Below are positions 44,245 through 63,480 of a stretch of 64,000 bases of DNA, piece after piece. Below the pieces are notes generated by a model. It ran no database searches. It was not told the DNA's origin and saw only the letters and a program-made list of their open reading frames with translations. The stretch is from Patescibacteria group bacterium (GTDB lineage Bacteria > Patescibacteriota > Minisyncoccia > Minisyncoccales > JANBVM01). A program made the position numbers and the translations under genes. The stretch lies in the NCBI GenBank assembly GCA_024238995.1, contig JANBVL010000001.1, positions 10,059 through 74,058 on the forward strand. The letters are read 5' to 3'. The number at the start of each line of letters is the position of its first letter. The first letter of the stretch is position 1.

Positions 44245-47172
44245 ATGGACCTATCATTACTCAACAATTTAAATCAACAGCAGAAACAAGCGGTTACTCA
44301 TGACAAAGGACCGCTTTTAATTGTAGCAGGAGCTGGTACAGGTAAAACCACAGTTATTACAAAAAGAATCGCTTATTTAATTGAGCAGGAAAAAGCTAAA
44401 CCAGAAGAAATTTTAGCAGTTACTTTTACTGATAAAGCGGCTGGTGAAATGGAAGAAAGAGTAGACAGACTATTGCCTTATGGATATATAGATTTATGGA
44501 TATCAACTTTCCATTCTTTTTGTGAAAGGGTTTTAAGAGACCATGCCTTAGACATTGGTTTGCCAACTGATTTTAAATTAATAGACCCTACAACAGCTTG
44601 GACGCTGATTAGTCAAAACTTAGAAAAGTTTAGCCTTAATTATTATCGTCCTTTGGGAAATCAAACCAAGTTTATTCATGCTTTAATAAATCATTTTTCC
44701 CGCTGTAAGGACCAGGGTGTTTACCCTCAAGATTATTTAAAGTATGTAGATAGTTTAAAAACTAATCTTACTGATTTGAAAGAGTCTCAGGAAACAGAAA
44801 GATTAAAAGAAGTGGCTGGAGCTTATCACGTTTATCAGAGATTGCTTTTAGAGAACAGTTCTTTGGATTTCGGCGACTTAATTAATTATTGCTTAAAGCT
44901 GTTTCAAGACAGACCGATTGTTTTAGATAAATTCAGAAAAAAGTTTAAATATATTTTAGTTGATGAGTTCCAAGATACCAACTGGGCGCAGTATGAATTG
45001 GTTAAATTATTATCCTTACCCGATAATAATCTTACAGTTTGTGCTGATGATGACCAGGCGATTTACAGGTGGAGAGGCGCTTCTTTCAACAACATTATTC
45101 AATTTAAAAAAAGCTTTCCAAAAACCAAAGAAGTCTTTTTGATTGAAAATTACCGTTCAGTTCAAAGCATATTAGACTTATCTTATAAATTTATTAAGAC
45201 CAATGACCCAAATCGTTTGGAATATGTCAGTAAAATAAACAAGAAATTAAAAGCTACTAAAACAGGTGAAGGAATTATAGAGCATTTGCACTTTAAAGAT
45301 TTATATGAAGAAGCAGGAGGCGTGATTAATAAAATAGCTGAAATATCTAAGGATAATAAAGAAACTTCCTTTAGTGATTTTGCAATTTTAGTTAGAGCGA
45401 ATAACTATGCCAACACTTTTACCAGAGCCCTAGAAAGAGCTAACTTTCCTTATCAATTTTTAGCTTCCAGAGGATTGTATTCTAAGCCAATTATTTTAGA
45501 CATAATTTCTTATTTTAAACTTTTAGACAATTATCATGAGAACTCTGCTTTATACAGGATTCTCAATTTCCCTTTTTTCAATATTTCAGTTCAAGATATT
45601 GCAAAGATTAATCAATATGCCAGACGTAAAACAAAATCTTTATACGAAGCTTTAAATGAACTTCAACTCATATTCGGCATTTCTCCTTCAGCTGGGCAGG
45701 CAATGAATTTAGTTTTAAGCCTGATTCAAAAACATACTGAAACAGCAAAGAACAAGAATGTTTCAGAAGTTTTAATTTCATTTTTAAAAGATTCGGGTTA
45801 TTTAAAGTATTTATCAAATAAGGAAAGCAGACAAGAATTAGATTTAGTTAATCAATTCTATCAAAAGATAAAAAACTTTGAAGAAGCTAATATAGACGCT
45901 TCTCTTAAAAACTTTATGGAAAGTTTAAATATGGAGCTTGAGTCGGGTGAAGAAGGCAAACTCAACTTTGATCCAGAGCAAGGTCCAGATATGGTTCGCG
46001 TCATGACTATTCATTCGGCCAAGGGCTTGGAATTTAAATATGTCTTTTTAGTTAATCTAGTTGATAGAAGATTTCCTACTTCAGAGCGGAAAGAGCCGAT
46101 TGAAATGCCAGAAAATTTGGTTAAAGAAATTATTCCAGAAGGTGATATTCATTTAGAAGAAGAAAGACGGCTTTGTTATGTAGCAATGACCAGAGCTAAA
46201 GAAAAGCTGTTTTTAACTTCTGCTGATAATTATGGCGGAATTAGAAAGAAAAAACCCTCCAGATTTTTAATGGAAATGGAGTTTGTTAAAAAAGGCGACG
46301 AATTGGCTGTAAAAGCTGTGAACACAGTTGCTGCGAGAAAACAGAAGAAAAAAATAATTGCTCCTTTAAATTTACCTTCTCATCTTTCATTTTCACAGTT
46401 TGCAGCTTTTGGAAAATGCCCTTTACAATATAAATTTGCTCATGTGTTAAAGATTCCAATACAGGGTAGGGCAGTGTTTTCTTTTGGTAAAACAATGCAT
46501 AATACTTTATATGATTTTGTAAAACTAATAGACAGAAGGAAAAATACTGTTCAATCTAATTTATTTGCATCAGATAAACAGGCAAAACAAGAAACAGAAA
46601 AAAAGGGGTTAAATCTGCCTGATTTAGTTGAGTTATATAAAAAGAACTGGATTGATGATTGGTATGAATCAAAAAACCAGAAACAAGAGTATTACAAATT
46701 GGGTCAAAAAATAGTTAAAGCTTTTTATGAAAAATTTATTCAAGAACAACCTAAGGTTTTCAAAATTAATGGAGATCCAGCTTTAGAAGTACCGTTTAAA
46801 TTTAAAATAGCTGGCAATACTTTAAAAGGCAAAATAGACAGAATAGATGAAATTAAAGAAGGAATTGAAATAATAGATTATAAAACAGGGCGATACAAAG
46901 AAAAATTATCTTCAGAAGATAAACAACAGCTTTTAATTTATCAGATGGCGGCTGAACAGTCTTTAGGATTGAAACCCGTTAAGCTTAGTTATTATTATTT
47001 AGAAGAAGGTAAAAAAACTTCATTTTTAGGAAGCGACCAGGAAAAAGAAAAACAAAAACAGGAGATAGTGGCTATGGCTGAAAAAATAAAGAATAGTAGT
47101 TTTAATGCAATTCCAGGCTGGCAGTGTAAATACTGTGATTTCAGAGATATTTGTAATTATGCTCAGAAGTAA
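44245..47172 (+). CDS. UvrD/PcrA-type SF1 helicase fused to C-terminal PD-(D/E)XK (Cas4/AddB-like, Cys-cluster) nuclease
   Basis: AGAGTGKTT, VDEFQDTN, YRS, TIHSAKGLEF and VAMTRAK. The C-terminus carries C...(CPLQYKF), IDRID..IIDYKTG, LLIYQMAA and CKYCDFRDIC. Confidence 0.85.
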   Translation: MDLSLLNNLNQQQKQAVTHDKGPLLIVAGAGTGKTTVITKRIAYLIEQEKAKPEEILAVTFTDKAAGEMEERVDRLLPYGYIDLWISTFHSFCERVLRDHALDIGLPTDFKLIDPTTAWTLISQNLEKFSLNYYRPLGNQTKFIHALINHFSRCKDQGVYPQDYLKYVDSLKTNLTDLKESQETERLKEVAGAYHVYQRLLLENSSLDFGDLINYCLKLFQDRPIVLDKFRKKFKYILVDEFQDTNWAQYELVKLLSLPDNNLTVCADDDQAIYRWRGASFNNIIQFKKSFPKTKEVFLIENYRSVQSILDLSYKFIKTNDPNRLEYVSKINKKLKATKTGEGIIEHLHFKDLYEEAGGVINKIAEISKDNKETSFSDFAILVRANNYANTFTRALERANFPYQFLASRGLYSKPIILDIISYFKLLDNYHENSALYRILNFPFFNISVQDIAKINQYARRKTKSLYEALNELQLIFGISPSAGQAMNLVLSLIQKHTETAKNKNVSEVLISFLKDSGYLKYLSNKESRQELDLVNQFYQKIKNFEEANIDASLKNFMESLNMELESGEEGKLNFDPEQGPDMVRVMTIHSAKGLEFKYVFLVNLVDRRFPTSERKEPIEMPENLVKEIIPEGDIHLEEERRLCYVAMTRAKEKLFLTSADNYGGIRKKKPSRFLMEMEFVKKGDELAVKAVNTVAARKQKKKIIAPLNLPSHLSFSQFAAFGKCPLQYKFAHVLKIPIQGRAVFSFGKTMHNTLYDFVKLIDRRKNTVQSNLFASDKQAKQETEKKGLNLPDLVELYKKNWIDDWYESKNQKQEYYKLGQKIVKAFYEKFIQEQPKVFKINGDPALEVPFKFKIAGNTLKGKIDRIDEIKEGIEIIDYKTGRYKEKLSSEDKQQLLIYQMAAEQSLGLKPVKLSYYYLEEGKKTSFLGSDQEKEKQKQEIVAMAEKIKNSSFNAIPGWQCKYCDFRDICNYAQK

Positions 47173-54597: not shown

Positions 54598-55320
54598 ATG
54601 AAAATACTTAAAAATGCGGGTAGCTTTATAATTTTAACTCCAGAAAAAGAATTAAAAGAGCAATTATTAAGAATTGAAGAAGGGGGCAGGACTTGTTATC
54701 AGTCCAAGAAAGATGAAATTAATGAAGAAACAGCAAAAAAGTTTATTCAAATGATTCTTAAAAGAGGCCATGAAAGTGTGATCGAACATAGTAATATGAC
54801 AGTTCAATTTAATAATGTTTCCCGTGGATTTACTCATGAATTAGTTAGGCATCGTTTGTGTGCGTTTTCTCAAGAATCAACTCGTTATGTTGATTATTCT
54901 AAAAAAGGCGAGGGTGTGGATTTGAAAAAATTTCAAGTAAAATTTGTAGTTCCACCTCATAAAAATGAAAATGAAAAAGTTAAACTAGAGGATGGAAAAG
55001 AAATGTCTATGACTGATATGTTTAATGAGTGTGAGAATTTTTATAGATCTCTGCGAAAAGCTGGTTGGTCTCCCCAAGATGCTCGCCAAATTCTTCCAAT
55101 TGGGACTAAATCCCAGATAATTGTTTCTGCGAATTTCAGGCAATGGCGCCATATATTTTCCTTAAGAACTGACAGGGCAGCGCATTGGGAAATTCGGAAA
55201 ATTATGTGTGATTTATTAAAACATATTCAAAAAATTGTTCCAGTGATTTTTGATGATTTTGTTTACAAAGGTGTAGACCAAGACAATGTATCATATTTTA
55301 AAAAAACTGCTTTAAGATAA
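54598..55320 (+). CDS. thyX: FAD-dependent thymidylate synthase
   Basis: ThyX motif RHRLCAFSQESTRY plus the downstream R..R pairs. 240 aa. Confidence 0.9.
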   Translation: MKILKNAGSFIILTPEKELKEQLLRIEEGGRTCYQSKKDEINEETAKKFIQMILKRGHESVIEHSNMTVQFNNVSRGFTHELVRHRLCAFSQESTRYVDYSKKGEGVDLKKFQVKFVVPPHKNENEKVKLEDGKEMSMTDMFNECENFYRSLRKAGWSPQDARQILPIGTKSQIIVSANFRQWRHIFSLRTDRAAHWEIRKIMCDLLKHIQKIVPVIFDDFVYKGVDQDNVSYFKKTALR

Positions 55321-55340
55321 ATAATATTCAACCTAAAAAT

Positions 55341-56672
55341 GTGGAGTATTTAAAAAAAACAGATTTTCAAGTACAAGAACTTATTAAAAAAGAAATAAAA
55401 AGGCAGGAAACCACTTTAATGATGATTCCTTCAGAAAATCATAGTTCTTATGCAGTTAGAGAAGTGGTTGGTTCAATGCTTCAAGATAAATATTGTGAGG
55501 GTTATCCAAATAAACGTTATTATCAGGGCCAGGAAAACTTTGATAAGTTAGAAATATTGTGCCAAGAACGGGCTAAAAAAGCTTTTAAAGTTCCGTTTGT
55601 TAATGTCCAGGCTTTATCTGGCAGTCCTGCAAACTGCGCAGTATACATGGCTGTTTTAAATCCTAATGATAAAATCATGGCTTTAAGAATGGATCAAGGC
55701 GGCCATATTAGCCATGGATTAAATATTAACTTTTCAGGAAGGTTTTTTGAAAATGTTTTTTACAAGACAAACAAAGAGGGACTTATCGATTATGACGAAA
55801 TGGAAGGATTAGCTTTAAAAGAAAAACCAAACCTTATTATCGCAGGAATAACGTCTTATCCTTTAGCTTTAGATTTTGCTCGTTTCTCAGAGATCGCTGA
55901 AAAATGCAATGCCTACTTAATGGCTGATATTGCCCATGTTGCTGGACTCGTTTTAGCTGGAGCTTATCCTGATCCAGTGCCTTATTGCCATATCGTTAAT
56001 ACAACAACTCATAAAACTTTAAGGGGTCCAAGAGGCGCCTTGATCATGGTAACTGAAAAAGGTTTAGAAAAAGATTCTGAATTGCCTCAAAAAATAAACA
56101 GGGCTATTTTCCCAGGATTGCAGGGCGGTCCCCATGAGAACAATATTGCTGGCATTGCAGTTGCTTTAAAAGAAGCTCAAAAACCAGAATTTATTGAATA
56201 TGGCAAGCAGATTGTTGAAAATGCCAAAACATTGGCCCAATCCTTAAAGGAACAAAGAATAAAGCTTTGTTCCGGAGGAACTAATACCCACCTTATAATG
56301 ATTGATTTAAGAAATCTTGAAATATTGGGCAATACAGCTGCTGAAGCTTTAGAAACAGCTGGTATTGTTACTAATAGAAACATGATTCCCAATGATCCAA
56401 ATCCGCCATTCTATCCTTCAGGTTTAAGACTAGGAACTCCTGGAATAACTAGCAGGGGAATGAAAGAGGAAGAAATGAAGCAGATTAGTTCTTTTATAAA
56501 TGCTGTTTTAAAAGATATTTCAAGCTTAAAAAAACAAGCAGGTATTTCTTTTGAACAAGAAAAAGACCTTCAAACAAGGCAAAACATTATATTAAAAAGC
56601 AGCAGGATTAGAGAAACTAAGCAAGAGGTTGAAAGATTATGTGCAAAATTTCCTATTAAAAGAGAATATTAG
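55341..56672 (+). CDS. glyA: serine hydroxymethyltransferase
   Basis: MMIPSENH, YCEGYPNKRYYQG, TTTHKTLRGPRG (PLP lysine) and GLRLGTPGITSRG. GTG start. Confidence 0.9.
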   Translation: MEYLKKTDFQVQELIKKEIKRQETTLMMIPSENHSSYAVREVVGSMLQDKYCEGYPNKRYYQGQENFDKLEILCQERAKKAFKVPFVNVQALSGSPANCAVYMAVLNPNDKIMALRMDQGGHISHGLNINFSGRFFENVFYKTNKEGLIDYDEMEGLALKEKPNLIIAGITSYPLALDFARFSEIAEKCNAYLMADIAHVAGLVLAGAYPDPVPYCHIVNTTTHKTLRGPRGALIMVTEKGLEKDSELPQKINRAIFPGLQGGPHENNIAGIAVALKEAQKPEFIEYGKQIVENAKTLAQSLKEQRIKLCSGGTNTHLIMIDLRNLEILGNTAAEALETAGIVTNRNMIPNDPNPPFYPSGLRLGTPGITSRGMKEEEMKQISSFINAVLKDISSLKKQAGISFEQEKDLQTRQNIILKSSRIRETKQEVERLCAKFPIKREY

Positions 56673-56724: not shown

Positions 56725-56826
56725 CTAGATATATAGTACTAGGTTAAATGGGGTTAGTCTTCCATTGCCGTTTAGGAAGGAAATGATTTATTTTCCTTTT
56801 AAGTTAAAAATAAGTGAATTAATAGT

Positions 56827-57009
56827 ATGAACAAGATTTTACTAATGCAAGAAGAAGAAACTAAAACTCCTGAACAAGAAACAGGAACTGAAGGAACAGA
56901 AGAGAAAACCCCAGAGACAGGAACAGAAGAAGGAGAAACTAAGGAAGCTGAAGGAGGAGAAACTAAGGAAGCTGAAGGAGGAGAATCCTCTGAAGGCGGA
57001 ACGCAGTAA
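56827..57009 (+). CDS. small acidic low-complexity (E/T/G-rich) protein
   Basis: 60 aa. Contains a perfect 24-nt tandem duplication GGAGAAACTAAGGAAGCTGAAGGA (56932-56955 and 56956-56979). Followed by the terminator at 57028-57050. Confidence 0.4.
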   Translation: MNKILLMQEEETKTPEQETGTEGTEEKTPETGTEEGETKEAEGGETKEAEGGESSEGGTQ

Positions 57010-57027
57010 ATTAAAAGACTTAGAAAA

Positions 57028-57050
57028 AGCACCCAAAAGGGTGCTTTTTT
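57028..57050 (+). terminator. rho-independent terminator
   Basis: agcaccc-aaaa-gggtgct followed by ttttt. Confidence 0.7.
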
Positions 57051-57189
57051 ACTAAATCTAAATATCCATATAGTCATAATTTAGTTTTTAGCAACATAAG
57101 CTCTAATTCTAATCAGCAAAACCACTGCATAGAATGTAGTGGTTTTCATTTATTATTTTTAAAAATATTAATCTTGTTTGATTTTTACT

Positions 57190-58653
57190 TTAAAGCGTTG
57201 TAAATGATGATTCTGTTGAGGTTGCTTCATTATCAGATATATCACTTGAACTAATAATAAAGTAATGGGTTGTGCTGGCATTAAGACCTAATAGAGAAAT
57301 AGTGTGGTCTGTAACCAAATCACTTGAATCAACAGATAAAGTATTGTTCGAAATAATTAATGGGGTAGTAGTGCTGTACCAAACCACTGAATCTGATTCT
57401 TCATCTGTTTCCCAGATTATATCTGCAGTGTTTGTAGAAACACTTGAACTGATGCTGGAAATGATTGGCGCTGTGGTATCTGGAGTTAATGTTGTGAACG
57501 AAGATTCTGTTGAAGTTGCTTTATTACCAGATGAATCAAACGAACTAACAATAAAATAATAAGTTGTGCTGGAATTTAAGTTTGATAAAGAAATGCTGTG
57601 AGTTGTTACAAGATTACTTGAATCAACAAATAAGGTATTGTTTGAGATAATTAATGGAGTAGTTGTACTATACCAAACCACTGAATCTGATTCTTCATCT
57701 GTATTCCAACTTATATCTGCTGTGTTTGTAGAAACGCTTGAGCTGATATTGGAAACAACTGGTGCTGTAATATCTAGTGTTGAAGTGGTGTTATTATCAT
57801 CATCGTTATCATCTTGATCTTCATTTTGATCTCCATTTTCACATTCATCAAGATAGTCACCATGATCAAGGTGAGCCAGTGCAGCTGGTTCCGCTACTTC
57901 TATTGTATGTGCGTTTCCAGGATTATCTGGAGGAATATGACAAATTACAACCTTTCCTTTATTTTTTGAATGATTTAACTTAAATCTTACTTTGATTTTA
58001 TCACGATGATTCTTTATTTCTAATTTTCTTCCATTCCCATTTTCAATTTCCATCTCAAAATCATCTAGATCAGATACATAATTTTCTGCAAGATCTGTTA
58101 GCTTTTCTATGATATCATCTACATATTCAGCAGCTTGTCCATTACCTTTTCGTTCAAGAAGGTCTTTGGTTTTTTCTAATCTTTTAAGGGCAGCTGGTAA
58201 AACTTTATTAGCTTTTTTTATTCTTTTAAAATTGTTTTCTGTTGATGTTGAAATAGTAATACTTTCTGAATCATTATCATTTTGAAAGGTTAAAGCTCTT
58301 TGAGCTTCCATGAGCCTTTCCTGGGCAAATTTCAAACGTAAATTATCTTTATTTTTTTCTTTTGACAAAGCAATCCGCACTCTTTCTATTGCTAAATCAA
58401 TAGGGTAGAGAAGATCTCCTGGCCCAGCATCATTTGAAGCTACTACTGTTGCAGCAGAAGCTCCTATAACAGCAACGATCATTAACAGGGCGAAAATAAA
58501 CTTTGGAGTTAGATTAACAAAAATTGATGGTTTAAAAACATTGATCTTGTTAATGCTGGTTTCAATTTTTGCCCAGAGCGTGTTTTTTTCAGCTTTAGTT
58601 AAAGGATTGGTTTTTGCTGTTTCTTTTAGTTTTTTTTCAATATTAGATGACAT
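57190..58653 (-). CDS. anti-sigma-like membrane protein (DUF5667-like) with two C-terminal FN3-like repeats
   Basis: Overlaps the sigma gene by 11 nt. One TM (FIFALLMIVAVIGASAATVVA), then GDLLYPIDLAIERVRIA, then VVICHIPPDNPGNAHTIEV..AHLDHGD, then 2 x 98-aa repeats. Confidence 0.7.
   Translation of the reverse strand: MSSNIEKKLKETAKTNPLTKAEKNTLWAKIETSINKINVFKPSIFVNLTPKFIFALLMIVAVIGASAATVVASNDAGPGDLLYPIDLAIERVRIALSKEKNKDNLRLKFAQERLMEAQRALTFQNDNDSESITISTSTENNFKRIKKANKVLPAALKRLEKTKDLLERKGNGQAAEYVDDIIEKLTDLAENYVSDLDDFEMEIENGNGRKLEIKNHRDKIKVRFKLNHSKNKGKVVICHIPPDNPGNAHTIEVAEPAALAHLDHGDYLDECENGDQNEDQDDNDDDNNTTSTLDITAPVVSNISSSVSTNTADISWNTDEESDSVVWYSTTTPLIISNNTLFVDSSNLVTTHSISLSNLNSSTTYYFIVSSFDSSGNKATSTESSFTTLTPDTTAPIISSISSSVSTNTADIIWETDEESDSVVWYSTTTPLIISNNTLSVDSSDLVTDHTISLLGLNASTTHYFIISSSDISDNEATSTESSFTTL
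57193..57774 (-). repeat. tandem 294-bp (98-codon) duplication inside the anti-sigma-like gene
   Basis: For example accactgaatctgattcttcatctg at 57383 and at 57677 (offset 294). Protein units D(I/T)TAP..SSSVSTNTADI.W.TDEESDSVVWYSTTTPLIISNNTL. Confidence 0.85.
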
Positions 58654-59353: not shown

Positions 59354-59545
59354 ATGACTGAACCTGATATGGAAATAGCTCTTTTTCTGGCTGCTCATTT
59401 AGATAACCCTTGTGGTATTGAAATTGATGGTGAGTGGCATGATATCAGGGATTTTTACGAAAGGCTTGCTCGAAAGCTTTTAGCTTCAATGACCAATCCT
59501 GGCGCAAAAGAATTCTTAGAAAAAAAGATAAAAAAAGAGATTTAA
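59354..59545 (+). CDS. hypothetical protein
   Basis: 63-aa ORF between a consensus promoter and a terminator. Confidence 0.45.
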   Translation: MTEPDMEIALFLAAHLDNPCGIEIDGEWHDIRDFYERLARKLLASMTNPGAKEFLEKKIKKEI

Positions 59546-59560
59546 AAAAATTTCAAATAG

Positions 59561-59591
59561 AAACCGTTACAATAAAGCTAACGGTTTTTTT
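59561..59591 (+). terminator. rho-independent terminator
   Basis: aaaccgtta-caataaagc-taacggttt followed by tttt. Confidence 0.7.
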
Positions 59592-59726
59592 ATTTTGATT
59601 TTTTAACATAACGCTAGGGTAGAAAACTAGTGCTTTTCTATTATTATTTGCAATAATCTCTTGAGCTTGTTAAACTGAACAAGATTTTTAGAACATTAAA
59701 AAAATCAAAAATAAGAGGTATGAAAA

Positions 59727-60320
59727 ATGACAAAAAATGGAAAAATAGTGGTTTTTACTGGACCCATGTTCGCTAGTAAAACTAATAGGATTATAGAAGA
59801 ACTGGAAAAAGCAGAAATTGCAGGACTAAAGATTCGAGCCTTTAGACCTAGCACTGATACAAGATCTAAAGGATCTTGCCTTAATTCTCATTCAAAACGA
59901 AAAATAGAAGCGGTGATTATAAACCCTTATTTATCACTAGAATTAAGAACAAAAATAAAAACAGATTTGGAAAATGATGGAATTAAGGTTGCTGCTTTTG
60001 ATGAAGCACAATTCTTTTCAGATGAGATTATTGATTTCATTGATGAACTTGCTTGCCTTGGCATAAACATAATCGTTGGTGGGCTTGATACGGATTCCAA
60101 TAGAAAACCATTTGGACCAATGCCATCCATTCTTGCCAAAGCGGAAAAAGTCTTCAAATTAAAAGCGGTTTGTGAAGGCTGTCATGAAGAAGAAGCTTCA
60201 TTTACTTCATGGCGAGAAGCTAAAGCTGACAAGAAACAGGTAATAATTATTGGGGGGAAAAAAGAATATGCTCCCTTATGTAGGTCATGTTGGTATCATC
60301 GCAATGGAGTCAAAGAGTAA
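59727..60320 (+). CDS. tdk: thymidine kinase
   Basis: P-loop FTGPMFASKT, FDEAQFF and the Zn lasso C..C...C..C. 197 aa. Confidence 0.85.
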   Translation: MTKNGKIVVFTGPMFASKTNRIIEELEKAEIAGLKIRAFRPSTDTRSKGSCLNSHSKRKIEAVIINPYLSLELRTKIKTDLENDGIKVAAFDEAQFFSDEIIDFIDELACLGINIIVGGLDTDSNRKPFGPMPSILAKAEKVFKLKAVCEGCHEEEASFTSWREAKADKKQVIIIGGKKEYAPLCRSCWYHRNGVKE

Positions 60321-60356
60321 TCCAAAAACATTCTCAATTTTGTAATTCACAATTAC

Positions 60357-60387
60357 AGGCAGATGCTTAATCTGCCTTATTTTTTTC
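60357..60387 (+). terminator. rho-independent terminator after tdk
   Basis: aggcaga-tgcttaa-tctgcct followed by tattttttt. Confidence 0.7.
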
Positions 60388-60400
60388 TTTATACCCACTT

Positions 60401-60458
60401 AATATTGTGCGACGTTTATTGGATAGAGAAAAATACTAGAGTAGAGAACTAGCGTTTT
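60401..60458 (+). repeat. left copy of 58/59-nt two-block inverted repeat flanking the recombinase
   Basis: AATATTGTGCGACGTTTATT - 15-nt spacer - CTAGAGTAGAGAACTAGCGTTTT. Its partner in reverse complement lies at 61748-61806. Confidence 0.8.
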
Positions 60459-60459
60459 T

Positions 60460-61416
60460 TTATTCTTTTAGCTTTTTCCCACTATGGAACTTGCGGTGAA
60501 TTTCTTTTAAACGCTTACTTGTTACATGAGTATAGATTTGAGTTGAAGTAATACTTCTGTGACCTAAGAATTCTTGAATAGTTCTTAAATCAACGCCTTG
60601 GTTTAAAAGATCAGTTGCCATGGAATGTCTAAGTGTATGAGGAGTAGTAAAAACAGGAATGCCTGCTAAAATTGCATATTTTTTAACCAAGCGCTGAATA
60701 GAACGAGAGGTGAGTCGGCTATCTGCATCCTTCTTGGCCCTATAATGGATAAATAGAGCTTTTTCTTTATCTCTACGATTATCTAAATATTTTTTAATCC
60801 AATCTAAGGCTCTTTCTGAAAAATACACCGTTCTAGCAGATCCACCTTTTCCAATGACTGAAAGTTCTAAATCCTTCTTTTTTTGAATATTAGAAAATTG
60901 CTCTTTGTTTAAAGCAACAAGTTCTGCGATTCTAAGTCCAGTTGAAAATAATGATTCTAGAATGGCCCTATCCCTTAAACCAATCCTGGTATCATTGTTA
61001 GGGGATTTTAAGAACTTTTCAATTTGCTCTAAATTAAGAAATTTAATAGCTGTATCCTTTTTAGTGCCTTTAGGAAGCTTTATCTTATCTGCGGGAAGTG
61101 ATTGTATGTCTTTTGATGAAAAATAGCTTAAAAGGGCTCTGAGAGCGATAAGATAGTAGTTCTGAGTGATTTTCTTAAGGCTCTTGCCTTTGTTTGTATT
61201 AAAGCGAGATAGGAATAGGCGATACGTCCAAACATCATCAGCTGTAAATTGGTGAGGTAGTAGTTTTTCATTTTTTGTCTTTTTCAACCAAAACACAAAC
61301 TTATTTAAATATCTCTTATAATTTTCCTGTGTCTTATTAGCCAAACCTTTTTCAACTTCACAATAATCTAAAAAATCAGGAATATGGCTAATAATTGGAA
61401 TCTTTGATTTTTTCAT
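60460..61416 (-). CDS. tyrosine site-specific recombinase (XerC/XerD/integrase family)
   Basis: N-terminal core-binding domain. Catalytic region GLRIAEL, HTLRHSMATDLL, LGHRSITSTQIYTHV. Confidence 0.9.
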   Translation of the reverse strand: MKKSKIPIISHIPDFLDYCEVEKGLANKTQENYKRYLNKFVFWLKKTKNEKLLPHQFTADDVWTYRLFLSRFNTNKGKSLKKITQNYYLIALRALLSYFSSKDIQSLPADKIKLPKGTKKDTAIKFLNLEQIEKFLKSPNNDTRIGLRDRAILESLFSTGLRIAELVALNKEQFSNIQKKKDLELSVIGKGGSARTVYFSERALDWIKKYLDNRRDKEKALFIHYRAKKDADSRLTSRSIQRLVKKYAILAGIPVFTTPHTLRHSMATDLLNQGVDLRTIQEFLGHRSITSTQIYTHVTSKRLKEIHRKFHSGKKLKE

Positions 61417-61525
61417 TTTTTAAGGGGTCTTAGAGAAGTAGTCTAGTTTATATACACAATACGTCGCTTTACCATCATTGTGCGACATTGTCTACATATA
61501 TAATAACGTGGGGTAAAACCTCACG

Positions 61526-61714
61526 TCAAGTGGAAAACCCATACTTCCCCATGGGTACATTTACATTTTTTAGTTTATGTCCTTCTGGCAGATTAAAAAC
61601 AATTCTTTTTTGTAAGAATTCAGAACGAATAAGATTCGCACCAATATTTTTCAACTTTAATCTTATCTCGTCTTTATCAATATTTGTAAATTTTGCTTCG
61701 TATTCTATTTTCAT
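61526..61714 (-). pseudogene. 5' fragment of a CYTH-domain (CyaB/thiamine-triphosphatase-like) gene
   Basis: MKIEYEAKFTNIDKDEIRLKLKNIGANL...QKRIVF matches a CYTH N-terminus (ExExK motif). It stops after 62 codons, whereas full domains are around 150-180 aa. Confidence 0.5.
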
Positions 61715-61747
61715 AATATTTTATCCTACCAGAAACTTAGATAATTA

Positions 61748-61806
61748 AAAACACTAGCTCTCTACTCTAGCGTCTGTGTTCCACTCAATAAATGTCGCAC
61801 AATATT
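61748..61806 (-). repeat. right copy of the inverted repeat; also serves as 3' end/terminator region of the HEPN gene
   Basis: The reverse complement reads AATATTGTGCGACATTTATT - 16-nt spacer - CTAGAGTAGAGAGCTAGTGTTTT. That is 19/20 and 21/23 identity to the blocks at 60401-60458. Confidence 0.8.
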
Positions 61807-62413
61807 ATGGAATAATAATCCTGCTGGTTACTGTAATGATTCCAACATAATAATCAAAAAATGTGATATGTGAAGAAGAACTAATTGGTCTTAGCAATAA
61901 TCTTCCAGGTGTCATTCCTTGGATTCCATGTCCGAATTTTCCTAGAATTAAATCATTAAACTTCTCTCTTGATTTTTTAGATTTATGTGCAATTCTATTA
62001 CGAATTGTATTCATCTCGTCGCTGTCACGCGTAATTGTAATCATGGCTGTTTCATAAGGTTCGCCATCCTTAAAGTAAATTTTGGCTCTATTTCTCACTT
62101 TGCTCGCAGAGTTCCAACTAGCATAATCTCTATTTTCTCCTAATATAATTTCAATTGCTTTTTTTATATTTGGGGGTTTTACGAATCTCTTTGGAGTATA
62201 CCCAGAAGGTGACTTTGCTTCCAAAAGGTATCGTATAAATGATTCTTCTAAAAAACATTCCCACGCCATAAACACCCTTAAAAAAGCTAATTCAGCTACT
62301 ATTTCTACCTGAATGCCCGGTAAACCCGCTCTCCTAACTTTCGTTATTAAATTTCGACTACTGGCTATCTGCTTTGCCAGTTCTCTTAAAACATGTAAAA
62401 GATTGACTCGCAT
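61805..62413 (-). CDS. HEPN-domain protein (MAE_28990/MAE_18760-like), predicted RNase
   Basis: 202 aa, all-helical composition, Rx4H motif in NTIRNRIAHKS. Lies 17 nt downstream of the DUF262 gene. Confidence 0.6.
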   Translation of the reverse strand: MRVNLLHVLRELAKQIASSRNLITKVRRAGLPGIQVEIVAELAFLRVFMAWECFLEESFIRYLLEAKSPSGYTPKRFVKPPNIKKAIEIILGENRDYASWNSASKVRNRAKIYFKDGEPYETAMITITRDSDEMNTIRNRIAHKSKKSREKFNDLILGKFGHGIQGMTPGRLLLRPISSSSHITFFDYYVGIITVTSRIIIP

Positions 62414-62430
62414 AATAAACCCAAGGTATT

Positions 62431-63480
62431 TTAATTGACATTTAGTTCTTCCAGAATTTCTCTAATAATTGTCTTGTGCCTTATTCTCCTTCTAGACAGA
62501 TCAGTAGTGTGGCGAGTAGAGGCATCTATAAATTTTAAGTACTTTGATGAAGGTTCTTCGACTACAAGTTCTTTTTCGAGGATAGATAGTGCTTTTCTTA
62601 TGGCCCTGTACTTATTTGTTTTAATTTGAACCCGTGGTGTTGTTGATTTTGGAAAGCCATATGTTATATCGTAAATTGCACAAAAAAGACTATAGAATAG
62701 GGTTGTTTTTCGAAATTTTGATTTTGCCAAACTATCTCCAAATATTCTTGCGATCATGTCAATGCATTTTTTGAAGCGGACTACAACTTTTTTTTCTTGA
62801 ACGAAATCATCATCGTATTTTTCATAATACGATTTTATTTTTTTTCTATCCTGAAGGCCAGCAATCATTGCTATAACCAACTCTGAACAAAGTTCAGCCT
62901 CTTTCATTCTCATTATGCTTTGATGGGTTAGGATCTTATTTTGCCGCCAAAACTCTAAGTGATCTCTACCTAATTGAAAAACTATCTGTTTAAATTTTCC
63001 AGAAAAATCTGCATTGAGTTTTTCTTGCGCGTTTAATACTATAGTATAAGAATTTATTCGCCCGAACACCTCTAAAACATTTCTATCATTAGCACCAACT
63101 AGAAAAACTACTGGTAAGTCATACTCTAAAAATTTCTTTTTAAGCCTGTTTGAAAGTCCGGAGAATTTTAAACCTCCATAAGCTTTACTATGCACTTTTA
63201 ATAATGAGAACTCATCGTTAATATAATCTAAGATTGCCCTTATACGTTGTTGACCGTCAACCACTTCTCTTATTGTTTTTTTGGTTCTGAGATCAATCTT
63301 TTGTCTTATATGAATAGAGGGAACAGGAAATCCATTTAATATGGTATCAACGAGATAGGAGCGAGCCTTTATACTCCACACTTTTCTTCTTTGAAACTCT
63401 GGCGCTAGAATTAACTCTTTCTTATTACTCCACTCCCTAAAATCGTTAATGCCGATTGTTTTAATTTTAGGATTCTGCAT
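62431..63480 (-). CDS. DUF262 (ParB/GmrSD N-terminal-like) domain protein, no DUF1524 nuclease tail
   Basis: LAPEFQRRKVWS...LVDTILNGFPVPSI and VVDGQQRIRAI (the DGQQR signature). 349 aa. Confidence 0.7.
   Translation of the reverse strand: MQNPKIKTIGINDFREWSNKKELILAPEFQRRKVWSIKARSYLVDTILNGFPVPSIHIRQKIDLRTKKTIREVVDGQQRIRAILDYINDEFSLLKVHSKAYGGLKFSGLSNRLKKKFLEYDLPVVFLVGANDRNVLEVFGRINSYTIVLNAQEKLNADFSGKFKQIVFQLGRDHLEFWRQNKILTHQSIMRMKEAELCSELVIAMIAGLQDRKKIKSYYEKYDDDFVQEKKVVVRFKKCIDMIARIFGDSLAKSKFRKTTLFYSLFCAIYDITYGFPKSTTPRVQIKTNKYRAIRKALSILEKELVVEEPSSKYLKFIDASTRHTTDLSRRRIRHKTIIREILEELNVN

Follow-up and report, generated by a model that had tools for sequence, protein, structure and literature searches.

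A probable Xer/dif module with inward-facing half-sites at the replication terminus of Nealsonbacteria-like Patescibacteria

In the XerS/difSL system, the dif site is located directly upstream of xerS at the switch of the GC skew, and xerS is often found with a terminator (PMC1914069). The authors of that study speculated that the site lies between the promoter and the open reading frame (ORF) of the recombinase (PMC1914069). When a dif site adjoins its xer gene, this may be a hallmark of systems with a single recombinase (PMC5357621). Another use of Xer binding is known from Bacillus subtilis, where XerD-specific sites (XDS) unload SMC at the terminus independently of dif and of catalysis (Karaboja 2021, as cited in PMC10945525 and PMC11840125). 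Our literature search returned nothing relevant that links Patescibacteria, the candidate phyla radiation (CPR), Parcubacteria or Nealsonbacteria to Xer/dif. Here we describe a locus in a 64,000-nt stretch of DNA from a Patescibacteria group bacterium (contig JANBVL010000001.1 of assembly GCA_024238995.1, positions 10,059 to 74,058 of the forward strand), hereafter called the window. The locus contains a tyrosine recombinase gene, xer, enclosed by two inverted repeats of 58 and 59 nt, each composed of two conserved blocks (block 1 and block 2), and a third, internal copy of the block 1 core. A first-pass annotation of the window took this arrangement for an invertible switch or a minimal mobile element. 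The sequence comparisons presented below lead us to consider it likely that the locus is instead the chromosomal Xer/dif dimer-resolution module at the terminus of Nealsonbacteria-like genomes (Patescibacteria/CPR), supplemented with half-sites that face inward.

The Xer protein exhibits a Phage_integrase domain (PF00589, E-value = 1.3e-39), in agreement with its initial assignment to the Xer/integrase family, and an N-terminal SAM-like domain. It matches the NCBIfam profiles of XerD (220.9 bits, 2.1e-65) and XerC (219.7 bits, 5.2e-65) over their full length, both below the equivalog cut-offs. The XerS profile gives a weak and partial match (107 bits), the fim-type tyrosine invertase profiles score 54-57 bits, and the match to the integron integrase profile is also weak. 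The closest structure in the PDB is that of Escherichia coli XerD (1a0p, 2.6e-40), XerH being a distant match (8.1e-13). The catalytic residues R162, H260-x-x-R263, H286 and Y295 are invariant among 25 homologues. Identity to the sequence over its whole length is 74-87% for more than 100 protein clusters, nearly all with a length of 318-319 amino acids (aa). The few named sources among these clusters are Nealsonbacteria, Parcubacteria and Patescibacteria.

For the comparative analysis we collected 80 related loci (L003-L082) from species-representative genomes and examined flanks of about 4-10 kb. In every relative, Xer is 61-90% identical to that of the window over the full length. In the window, GC skew is above zero between 2 and 58 kb and below zero past 62 kb, and the cumulative G-C maximum is reached at 60801-61200, within the segment delimited by the repeats. 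Among the 59 related loci with at least 2.5 kb on both sides, 57 change from positive skew on the left of xer to negative skew on its right. A random gene on one replichore would exhibit equal signs on its two sides; the sign change around xer thus indicates the terminus. The gene gltX is located upstream of xer in the same orientation in 50 of 51 loci, and a gene for a small secreted protein usually comes after gltX. This fixed position at the terminus, together with the gltX synteny and the conservation of the protein, argues for a vertically inherited housekeeping gene and not for an element that frequently flips or moves.

The remaining locus of the 51 deserves a separate mention. In L081 (CALHIP010000008.1), and only there, gltX is found downstream of xer on the opposite strand, i.e. 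xer is inverted relative to gltX. This locus has no ATTGTGCGAC-type site at one mismatch or fewer, and the skew switch is still there.

An excisable element was nevertheless conceivable, since the left repeat and the internal core are in direct orientation and xer could leave between them as a circle of about 1.1 kb; the direct orientation of the internal and downstream sites is conserved in the relatives. We consider such an element extremely unlikely. The gene always occurs at the terminus among conserved neighbours, in one copy in the window and per locus, the window contains no second integrase, and excision would remove a gene that is conserved throughout the clade. The downstream site is also no more than a half-site, as described below. 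Finally, no xer homologue accompanies any of the 120 matches listed for a search of viral contigs with a 14-mer of the motif, matches that are consistent with chance and uninformative in themselves.

The third copy of the block 1 core (ATTGTGCGACATT, 61477-61489, plus strand) had been singled out at first reading as a possible recombination partner of the left repeat, and it does prove important: it is one half of a two-armed, 28-bp dif-like site. When the occurrences of the core are aligned class by class, the copy upstream of xer extends to tGTCGCTTTACCTACATTGTGCGACatt, and the family consensus of the two-armed site is ATGTCGCTTTA / CCTACA / TTGTGCGACAT. Within 700 nt upstream of xer, 66 of 78 loci exhibit a match to ATGTCGCTTTACCTACATTGTGCGACAT at 20 or more of the 28 positions, and the median distance to the ATG is 64 nt; in the background no match exceeds 18 positions. 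The 64-kb window contains a single two-armed site, and the count per locus is also one. The arms are identical and palindromic over their outer 7 bp (ATGTCGC) and differ in the inner 4 bp, and the centre is as conserved as they are. The identity of the outer 7 bp hints at both arms being read by one protein. The right arm agrees with the E. coli XerD arm (TTATGTTAAAT, sequence from PMC3025954) at 7 of 11 positions, a resemblance that is only suggestive.

The two arms vary independently, without compensation, which fits the recognition of DNA by a protein better than a stem in RNA. For the same reason we rejected, as the main explanation, a leader hairpin in the xer transcript formed by the pairing of GTCGC with GCGAC.

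The dif-like site is located between the predicted xer promoter and the ATG. The pattern GTCAAG...hairpin...ATAATA beside the two-armed site is kept in most relatives; on the side away from xer, the site is followed by a conserved TTGACr, a short hairpin and TATTAT. Homology with the two closest genomes begins at the -35 element and continues through the site into xer, the sequences further upstream being unrelated. The promoter spacer itself (16-18 nt; 61507-61527 in the window) forms a short hairpin in most loci, in which the sequence varies and the pairing is kept. It looks like a terminator of the upstream gene nested in the promoter.

An independent marker of polarity is provided by the heptamer TAGGGGA. 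In the pooled flanks of the 80 loci (about 506 kb, within about 4 kb of the terminus) it has 163 leading-strand copies and a single lagging-strand copy. The corresponding ratio is 3:1 for GGGG and ranges roughly from 2:1 to 21:1 for the A-ending one-letter variants of TAGGGGA. Counted by region, the copies number 83 plus and 2 minus to the left of the dif-like site, 0 plus and 6 minus between the site and the ATG, 1 plus and 5 minus within xer, and 0 plus and 57 minus to the right of xer. According to these counts, the polarity switches within about 100 bp of the internal site rather than at the flanking repeats. The seven copies of the window are all on the plus strand (starting at 1019, 21834, 22227, 22278, 33845, 48976 and 60999), and on the extended contig there is one copy beyond the site, pointing back. 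Coding sequence accounts for most of the copies, which often read xTA GGG GAx. Within xer, however, the word is on the antisense strand, so that a coding-strand bias does not explain its distribution. TAGGGGA is a candidate for the FtsK-orienting word of these CPR lineages, comparable to the FtsK-orienting polar sequences (KOPS) of other bacteria.

The repeats that enclose xer exist as first reported, at the same positions, and far exceed chance expectation. The two copies of block 1 are identical at 19 of 20 positions (13+6 identical bases common to both), and the two copies of block 2 at 21 of 23. With up to three mismatches, each block has two matches in the 64-kb window, when 0.02 and 0.00 are expected for block 1 and block 2, respectively. 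The 10-mer core ATTGTGCGAC occurs exactly three times in the window, in both repeats and in the internal copy. This triple occurrence is weak when taken alone, as 11 of 100 shuffles give three or more matches, and its significance comes from the comparative data. The annotation had further proposed that both boxes are under selection, with unrelated spacers between them. Selection on both boxes, and their tie to the recombinase, are borne out. The description of the spacers needs a correction on the left side, where the spacer GGATAGAGAAAAATA fits the purine-rich leader GAGAGAAAA of the family. The right repeat extends into the stop codon of the 202-aa ORF (61805-61807), as had been noticed for what was then named a HEPN gene. 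That name and the label of the 62-aa ORF as a truncated CYTH gene are both unconfirmed, nothing relevant being found in Pfam (E-value<=10) or by phmmer against the PDB. The features of the locus are listed in Table 1.

Table 1. Positions of the features of the xer locus in the window (numbered from the first nucleotide of the window).
Feature	Position	Strand	Description
Block 1, left copy (class D half-site)	60401-60420	+	AATATTGTGCGACGTTTATT; points to xer; matches the right dif arm, with family-specific flanks
Block 2, left copy	60436-60458 (hairpin feature to 60459)	+	CTAGAGTAGAGAACTAGCGTTTT; hairpin CTAG / AGTAGAGAA / CTAG plus outer pairs; A-rich leader and, on both strands, a T-run; adjoins the xer stop codon
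xer	60460-61416	-	318-aa XerC/D-like tyrosine recombinase
Last TAGGGGA copy in the window	60999-61005	+	On the antisense strand of xer; points to the dif-like site
dif-like core site, 28 bp (11+6+11)	61461-61488		ACGTCGCTTTA / CCATCA / TTGTGCGACAT; contains the third core copy
Probable xer promoter	61529-61500	-	TTGACG-18 nt-TATTAT; promoter scan 10/12
62-aa ORF	61526-61714	-	Variable cargo between the class I module and the xer promoter
Block 2, right copy	61770-61748	-	Hairpin plus T-run after the 202-aa ORF
Block 1, right copy (class I half-site)	61806-61787	-	AATATTGTGCGACATTTATT; points to xer; overlaps the stop codon of the 202-aa ORF

Comparison with the related loci identifies block 1 as a half-site, i.e. 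a single arm of the dif-like site. The consensus of the class downstream of xer (class D) is taaTATTGTGCGACAttta; it is present in nearly all relatives, in minus orientation relative to xer. A half-site just past the xer stop codon is nearly universal (55 within 500 nt), with or without cargo. Upstream of xer, 24-26 half-sites are in plus and 0-1 in minus orientation, whereas downstream 66-76 are in minus and 5-6 in plus orientation. For class D as for the upstream class (class I), conservation ends on the 5' side at taaT, without a second arm, and in the window the flanks of the two half-sites match the left arm of dif at only 1 and 3 of 11 positions. Lacking the second arm, they should be poor substrates for a complete tyrosine-recombinase reaction. 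The arm in the half-sites is nearer to the ideal sequence than the arm in dif. Position 4 of the class D sites changes only where the dif arm has changed there too (7/14 versus 0/40, the lineages being related), a shared relaxation that weakly suggests a common reader of the two sequences.

A scan of metagenome contigs with the bare 16-mer returned 120 matches, 65 of which have an xer homologue in the locus, all with identical geometry. In the remainder, 42 of 56 sites point to a contig end less than 2.2 kb away, and the other 14 are apparent chance matches. This linkage to xer disagrees with the repeat being a common terminator element behind unrelated genes, which the first-pass annotation had named as the outcome that would undo its reading. 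In seven relatives (L035, L038 and L069; L061, L071, L074 and L077) the half-site motif is located within the gltX reading frame, in its 3' region and at two different positions. A codon-level comparison reveals that these sites change the usual residues (…KLEKILSK… to …LLLCD…, and …ILSK to …ILCD). The replacement of typical residues at two positions points to selection at the DNA level, and the sequence appears to be constrained both as code and as a DNA site. We had entertained the possibility that the distant upstream matches are coincidences inside gltX; this was rejected, since the motif displaces the usual residues, and they are probably real sites.

These data also bear on the initial proposal of an invertible switch, in which either the 1.4-kb segment between the repeats or the promoter segment of about 300 bp between the right repeat and the internal site would invert, altering the expression of xer or of its neighbours. 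Several observations are compatible with it. The 13+6 bases shared by the inverted repeats could be used as a crossover region, the xer promoter is between the right repeat and the internal site so that inversion would uncouple it from xer, and in L081 xer is inverted relative to gltX. However, the flanking sites lack the second binding arm, and the promoter is found beside the two-armed site in nearly all of about 66 genomes and never on the class I site. gltX and xer keep their relative orientation in 50 of 51 loci, the sole exception being L081, which is without the motif; the location at the terminus holds in 57 of 59; and the three closest genomes agree in the side on which the sig70/DUF5667 genes lie. 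Three contigs on record carry the exact protein, all from one sample, and all exhibit the same arrangement, with no alternative one seen. We therefore consider a switch very unlikely. The comparison with the Hin segment that had accompanied the proposal is a loose one, Hin being a serine recombinase.

Block 2 is a hairpin. In 25 homologous modules, compensatory double changes are observed at all seven stem pairs. The general layout is a purine-rich GAGAGAAAA leader, the hairpin and a T-run, and the A-rich leader and T-tail are present in 25-36 modules. The loop is G/A-rich, 5-11 nt long, and often contains TAGGG(G)A. We predict that block 2 is a probable bidirectional intrinsic terminator. A consensus terminator scan gave a single match, the terminator of the thymidine kinase (TK) gene at 60357-60377, and did not pick up the block 2 copies. 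Two other readings of the module were tried. A specifically conserved hairpin loop was rejected, since a larger set of modules has loops of 5-11 nt that share no more than a G/A-rich composition. A small RNA gene made of the half-site module is disfavoured, there being no conserved promoter and the distance between site and hairpin being variable.

The genes around xer vary. Even in the closest genomes the cargo beside the promoter differs, the 62-aa ORF of the window being replaced in L003 and L004 by an unrelated Zn-ribbon-like ORF of 79-88 aa. In several loci two direct half-sites downstream of xer bracket a LAGLIDADG gene, a probable methyltransferase gene with adjacent ORFs, or other accessory genes; the assignment as a probable methyltransferase is based on a DPPY motif in the cargo ORF. 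Another cargo ORF, sometimes bracketed by two direct half-sites, probably encodes a DnaQ-like exonuclease. The LAGLIDADG endonuclease gene is free-standing (164-171 aa) and is the first ORF downstream of xer in L025, L050, L058, L061 and L077; the L050 copy matches PF00961 with an E-value of 3.3e-08. Relative to L003 and L004, the window contains as insertions the DUF262/GmrSD_N gene with the 202-aa ORF (61805-63480, minus strand), TK with a 63-aa ORF (59354-60320, plus strand) and, further away, ThyX with serine hydroxymethyltransferase (54598-56672, plus strand). The DUF262/GmrSD_N assignment of the 349-aa ORF and that of the thymidine kinase gene are both confirmed by Pfam. Genes of thymidylate metabolism and defence-like genes thus appear to have been inserted at the terminus.

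Such variation raises the possibility that the half-sites are scars or active sites of Xer-dependent integration, and the terminus an island of cassettes. Integration at dif by integrative mobile elements exploiting Xer (IMEX) is well established (PMC5357621, PMC9765430), and plasmid dif (pdif) modules offer a similar model. In addition to the differing cargo and the paired direct sites around accessory genes, the DUF262 gene with the 202-aa ORF, and TK, adjoin the repeats and are absent from the relatives. As a general account of the half-sites, integration has in our view a minor chance of being correct. A simple integration leads to direct repeats, yet the upstream sites are always inverted with respect to the matching dif arm. 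The arm of the half-sites is closer to the ideal sequence than that of dif, unlike in decaying scars; sites have been written into the gltX coding sequence; and the half-site behind the xer stop codon is near-universal whether cargo is present or not. For some of the half-sites, Xer-dependent integration is a live minority explanation.

We propose the following scheme for an Xer/dif module of this kind. The xer gene would be transcribed from the TTGACG-18-TATTAT promoter, with a transcript running through the 28-bp dif-like site, and the enzyme would recombine sister chromosomes at that site. The 58/59-nt repeats would be copies of one module, in which a bidirectional terminator hairpin comes after a single Xer-binding arm (TTGTGCGACAT plus flanks). 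They stand on either side of xer-dif, and both face inward. The half-sites may bind one Xer monomer without strand exchange, and may mark or insulate the dif zone, like the XerD-only sites of B. subtilis or like stops for FtsK, SMC or the replication fork. The hairpins would keep converging transcription out. We infer the binding of Xer to these sequences, its action as a single recombinase and the role of the half-sites. A more specific version, in which the inward single-arm sites are landing pads for Xer monomers and form a polar bracket that stops or unloads the fork, FtsK or SMC at xer-dif, is offered tentatively; we think it possible, though rather doubtful. If it is true, the recombinase doubles as a terminus-defining protein in these tiny genomes, and the need for such a site is strong enough for it to be written into the gltX coding sequence where there is no intergenic space.

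Four observations weigh against the proposed scheme. The class I half-sites are detectable in only about one third of the loci, so that a symmetric bracket is not universal. The hairpins of the window have short stems and fold no better than shuffled sequence. Cargo between the sites is variable, which fits a history of site-specific insertions. Finally, the core ATTGT-GCG-ACA(A/T)T is near-palindromic, and some other dimeric DNA-binding protein could read it. This last point leads to a reading in which the 13-bp near-palindrome ATTGTGCGACA(T/A)T is the target of a different terminus protein (similar to Ter/RTP or MatP, or a helix-turn-helix dimer) and its overlap with the dif arm is secondary. 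The dyad character of the TGT-GCG-ACA core is as expected for such a protein, and so is the clustering of the sites within 1-2 kb of the terminus, opposed as in a fork trap. We give this reading a small chance. Over about 13-15 bp the motif coincides at every base with an arm of the two-armed site, it tracks xer in all the lineages examined, the class D site and the dif arm relax at the identical position, and no gene for a binding protein other than xer is consistently linked to it.

The locus exhibits no Rfam match (at the gathering threshold in the window, or at E-value<=1 in 60300-61900), and neither a tRNA nor a tmRNA is near it. Elsewhere in the window, at 46129-46230 (plus strand), there is a match to RF03531, a Clostridioides difficile small RNA within a helicase gene (69.2 bits for a gathering threshold of 65.2); conservation of the helicase coding sequence is the probable reason. 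A 487-aa protein of the DUF5667 family (57190-58653, minus strand) contains an internal stretch of about 95 aa twice, in nearly identical form. Adjoining its gene is a low-complexity region (56799-57077) with Glu/Thr/Gly/Lys-rich ORFs on both strands.

For CPR genomes of the Nealsonbacteria-Paceibacteria type, which come from uncultivated organisms, the analysis provides a candidate dif site, a candidate recombinase and a candidate KOPS-like word. In practice, metagenome-assembled CPR genomes could be closed and oriented with the help of this site. The conserved polar half-sites suggest that single-arm binding by Xer near dif may be under selection in a distant phylum, which would extend the idea behind XDS. 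The locus is also a caution for annotation, as inverted repeats around a recombinase gene need not denote a switch or a transposon.

Among the described systems, XerS/difSL is the closest, together with the single-recombinase systems XerH/difH, XerL/dif and archaeal XerA/dif. The common features are a tyrosine recombinase gene linked to its dif-like site at the skew switch, a position of the site directly upstream of the gene, between or within the promoter region, and a terminator after the gene, which is a probable one in the present locus. The module was also found by the same route as XerS, through skew and comparative genomics (PMC1914069, PMC5357621). There are, however, differences. The protein described here is XerC/D-like and 318 aa long, with only the weak resemblance to XerS (107 bits) and XerH (8.1e-13) given above. 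difSL is 31 bp long with an 11-bp centre, in contrast to the 28 bp and 6-bp centre of the present site, and a further difference is that the arms here are palindromic in their outer 7 bp and differ in the inner 4 bp. The additional inward half-sites have no counterpart that we found described for those systems.

FimB/FimE-fimS and Hin resemble the locus in that inverted repeats flank a segment carrying a promoter, a recombinase gene or both. In the present case the repeats are half-sites, and no polymorphism of orientation is seen across 51 genomes or the three contigs. Like KOPS, the SpoIIIE recognition sequences (SRS) and the architecture imparting sequences (AIMS), TAGGGGA is near-exclusively on the leading strand and reverses its orientation at the proposed dif. 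The KOPS sequence of E. coli is GGGNAGGG. The TAGGGGA heptamer is unlike it, and its distribution was measured near the terminus and in one 64-kb window only. Lastly, the half-sites resemble XDS, as far as these are described in the papers citing them, in corresponding to one dif arm, in not being full sites and in being clustered at the terminus. They differ from XDS in that there are one to three of them, at about 0.05-2 kb from dif, strictly opposed and often fused to a terminator hairpin.

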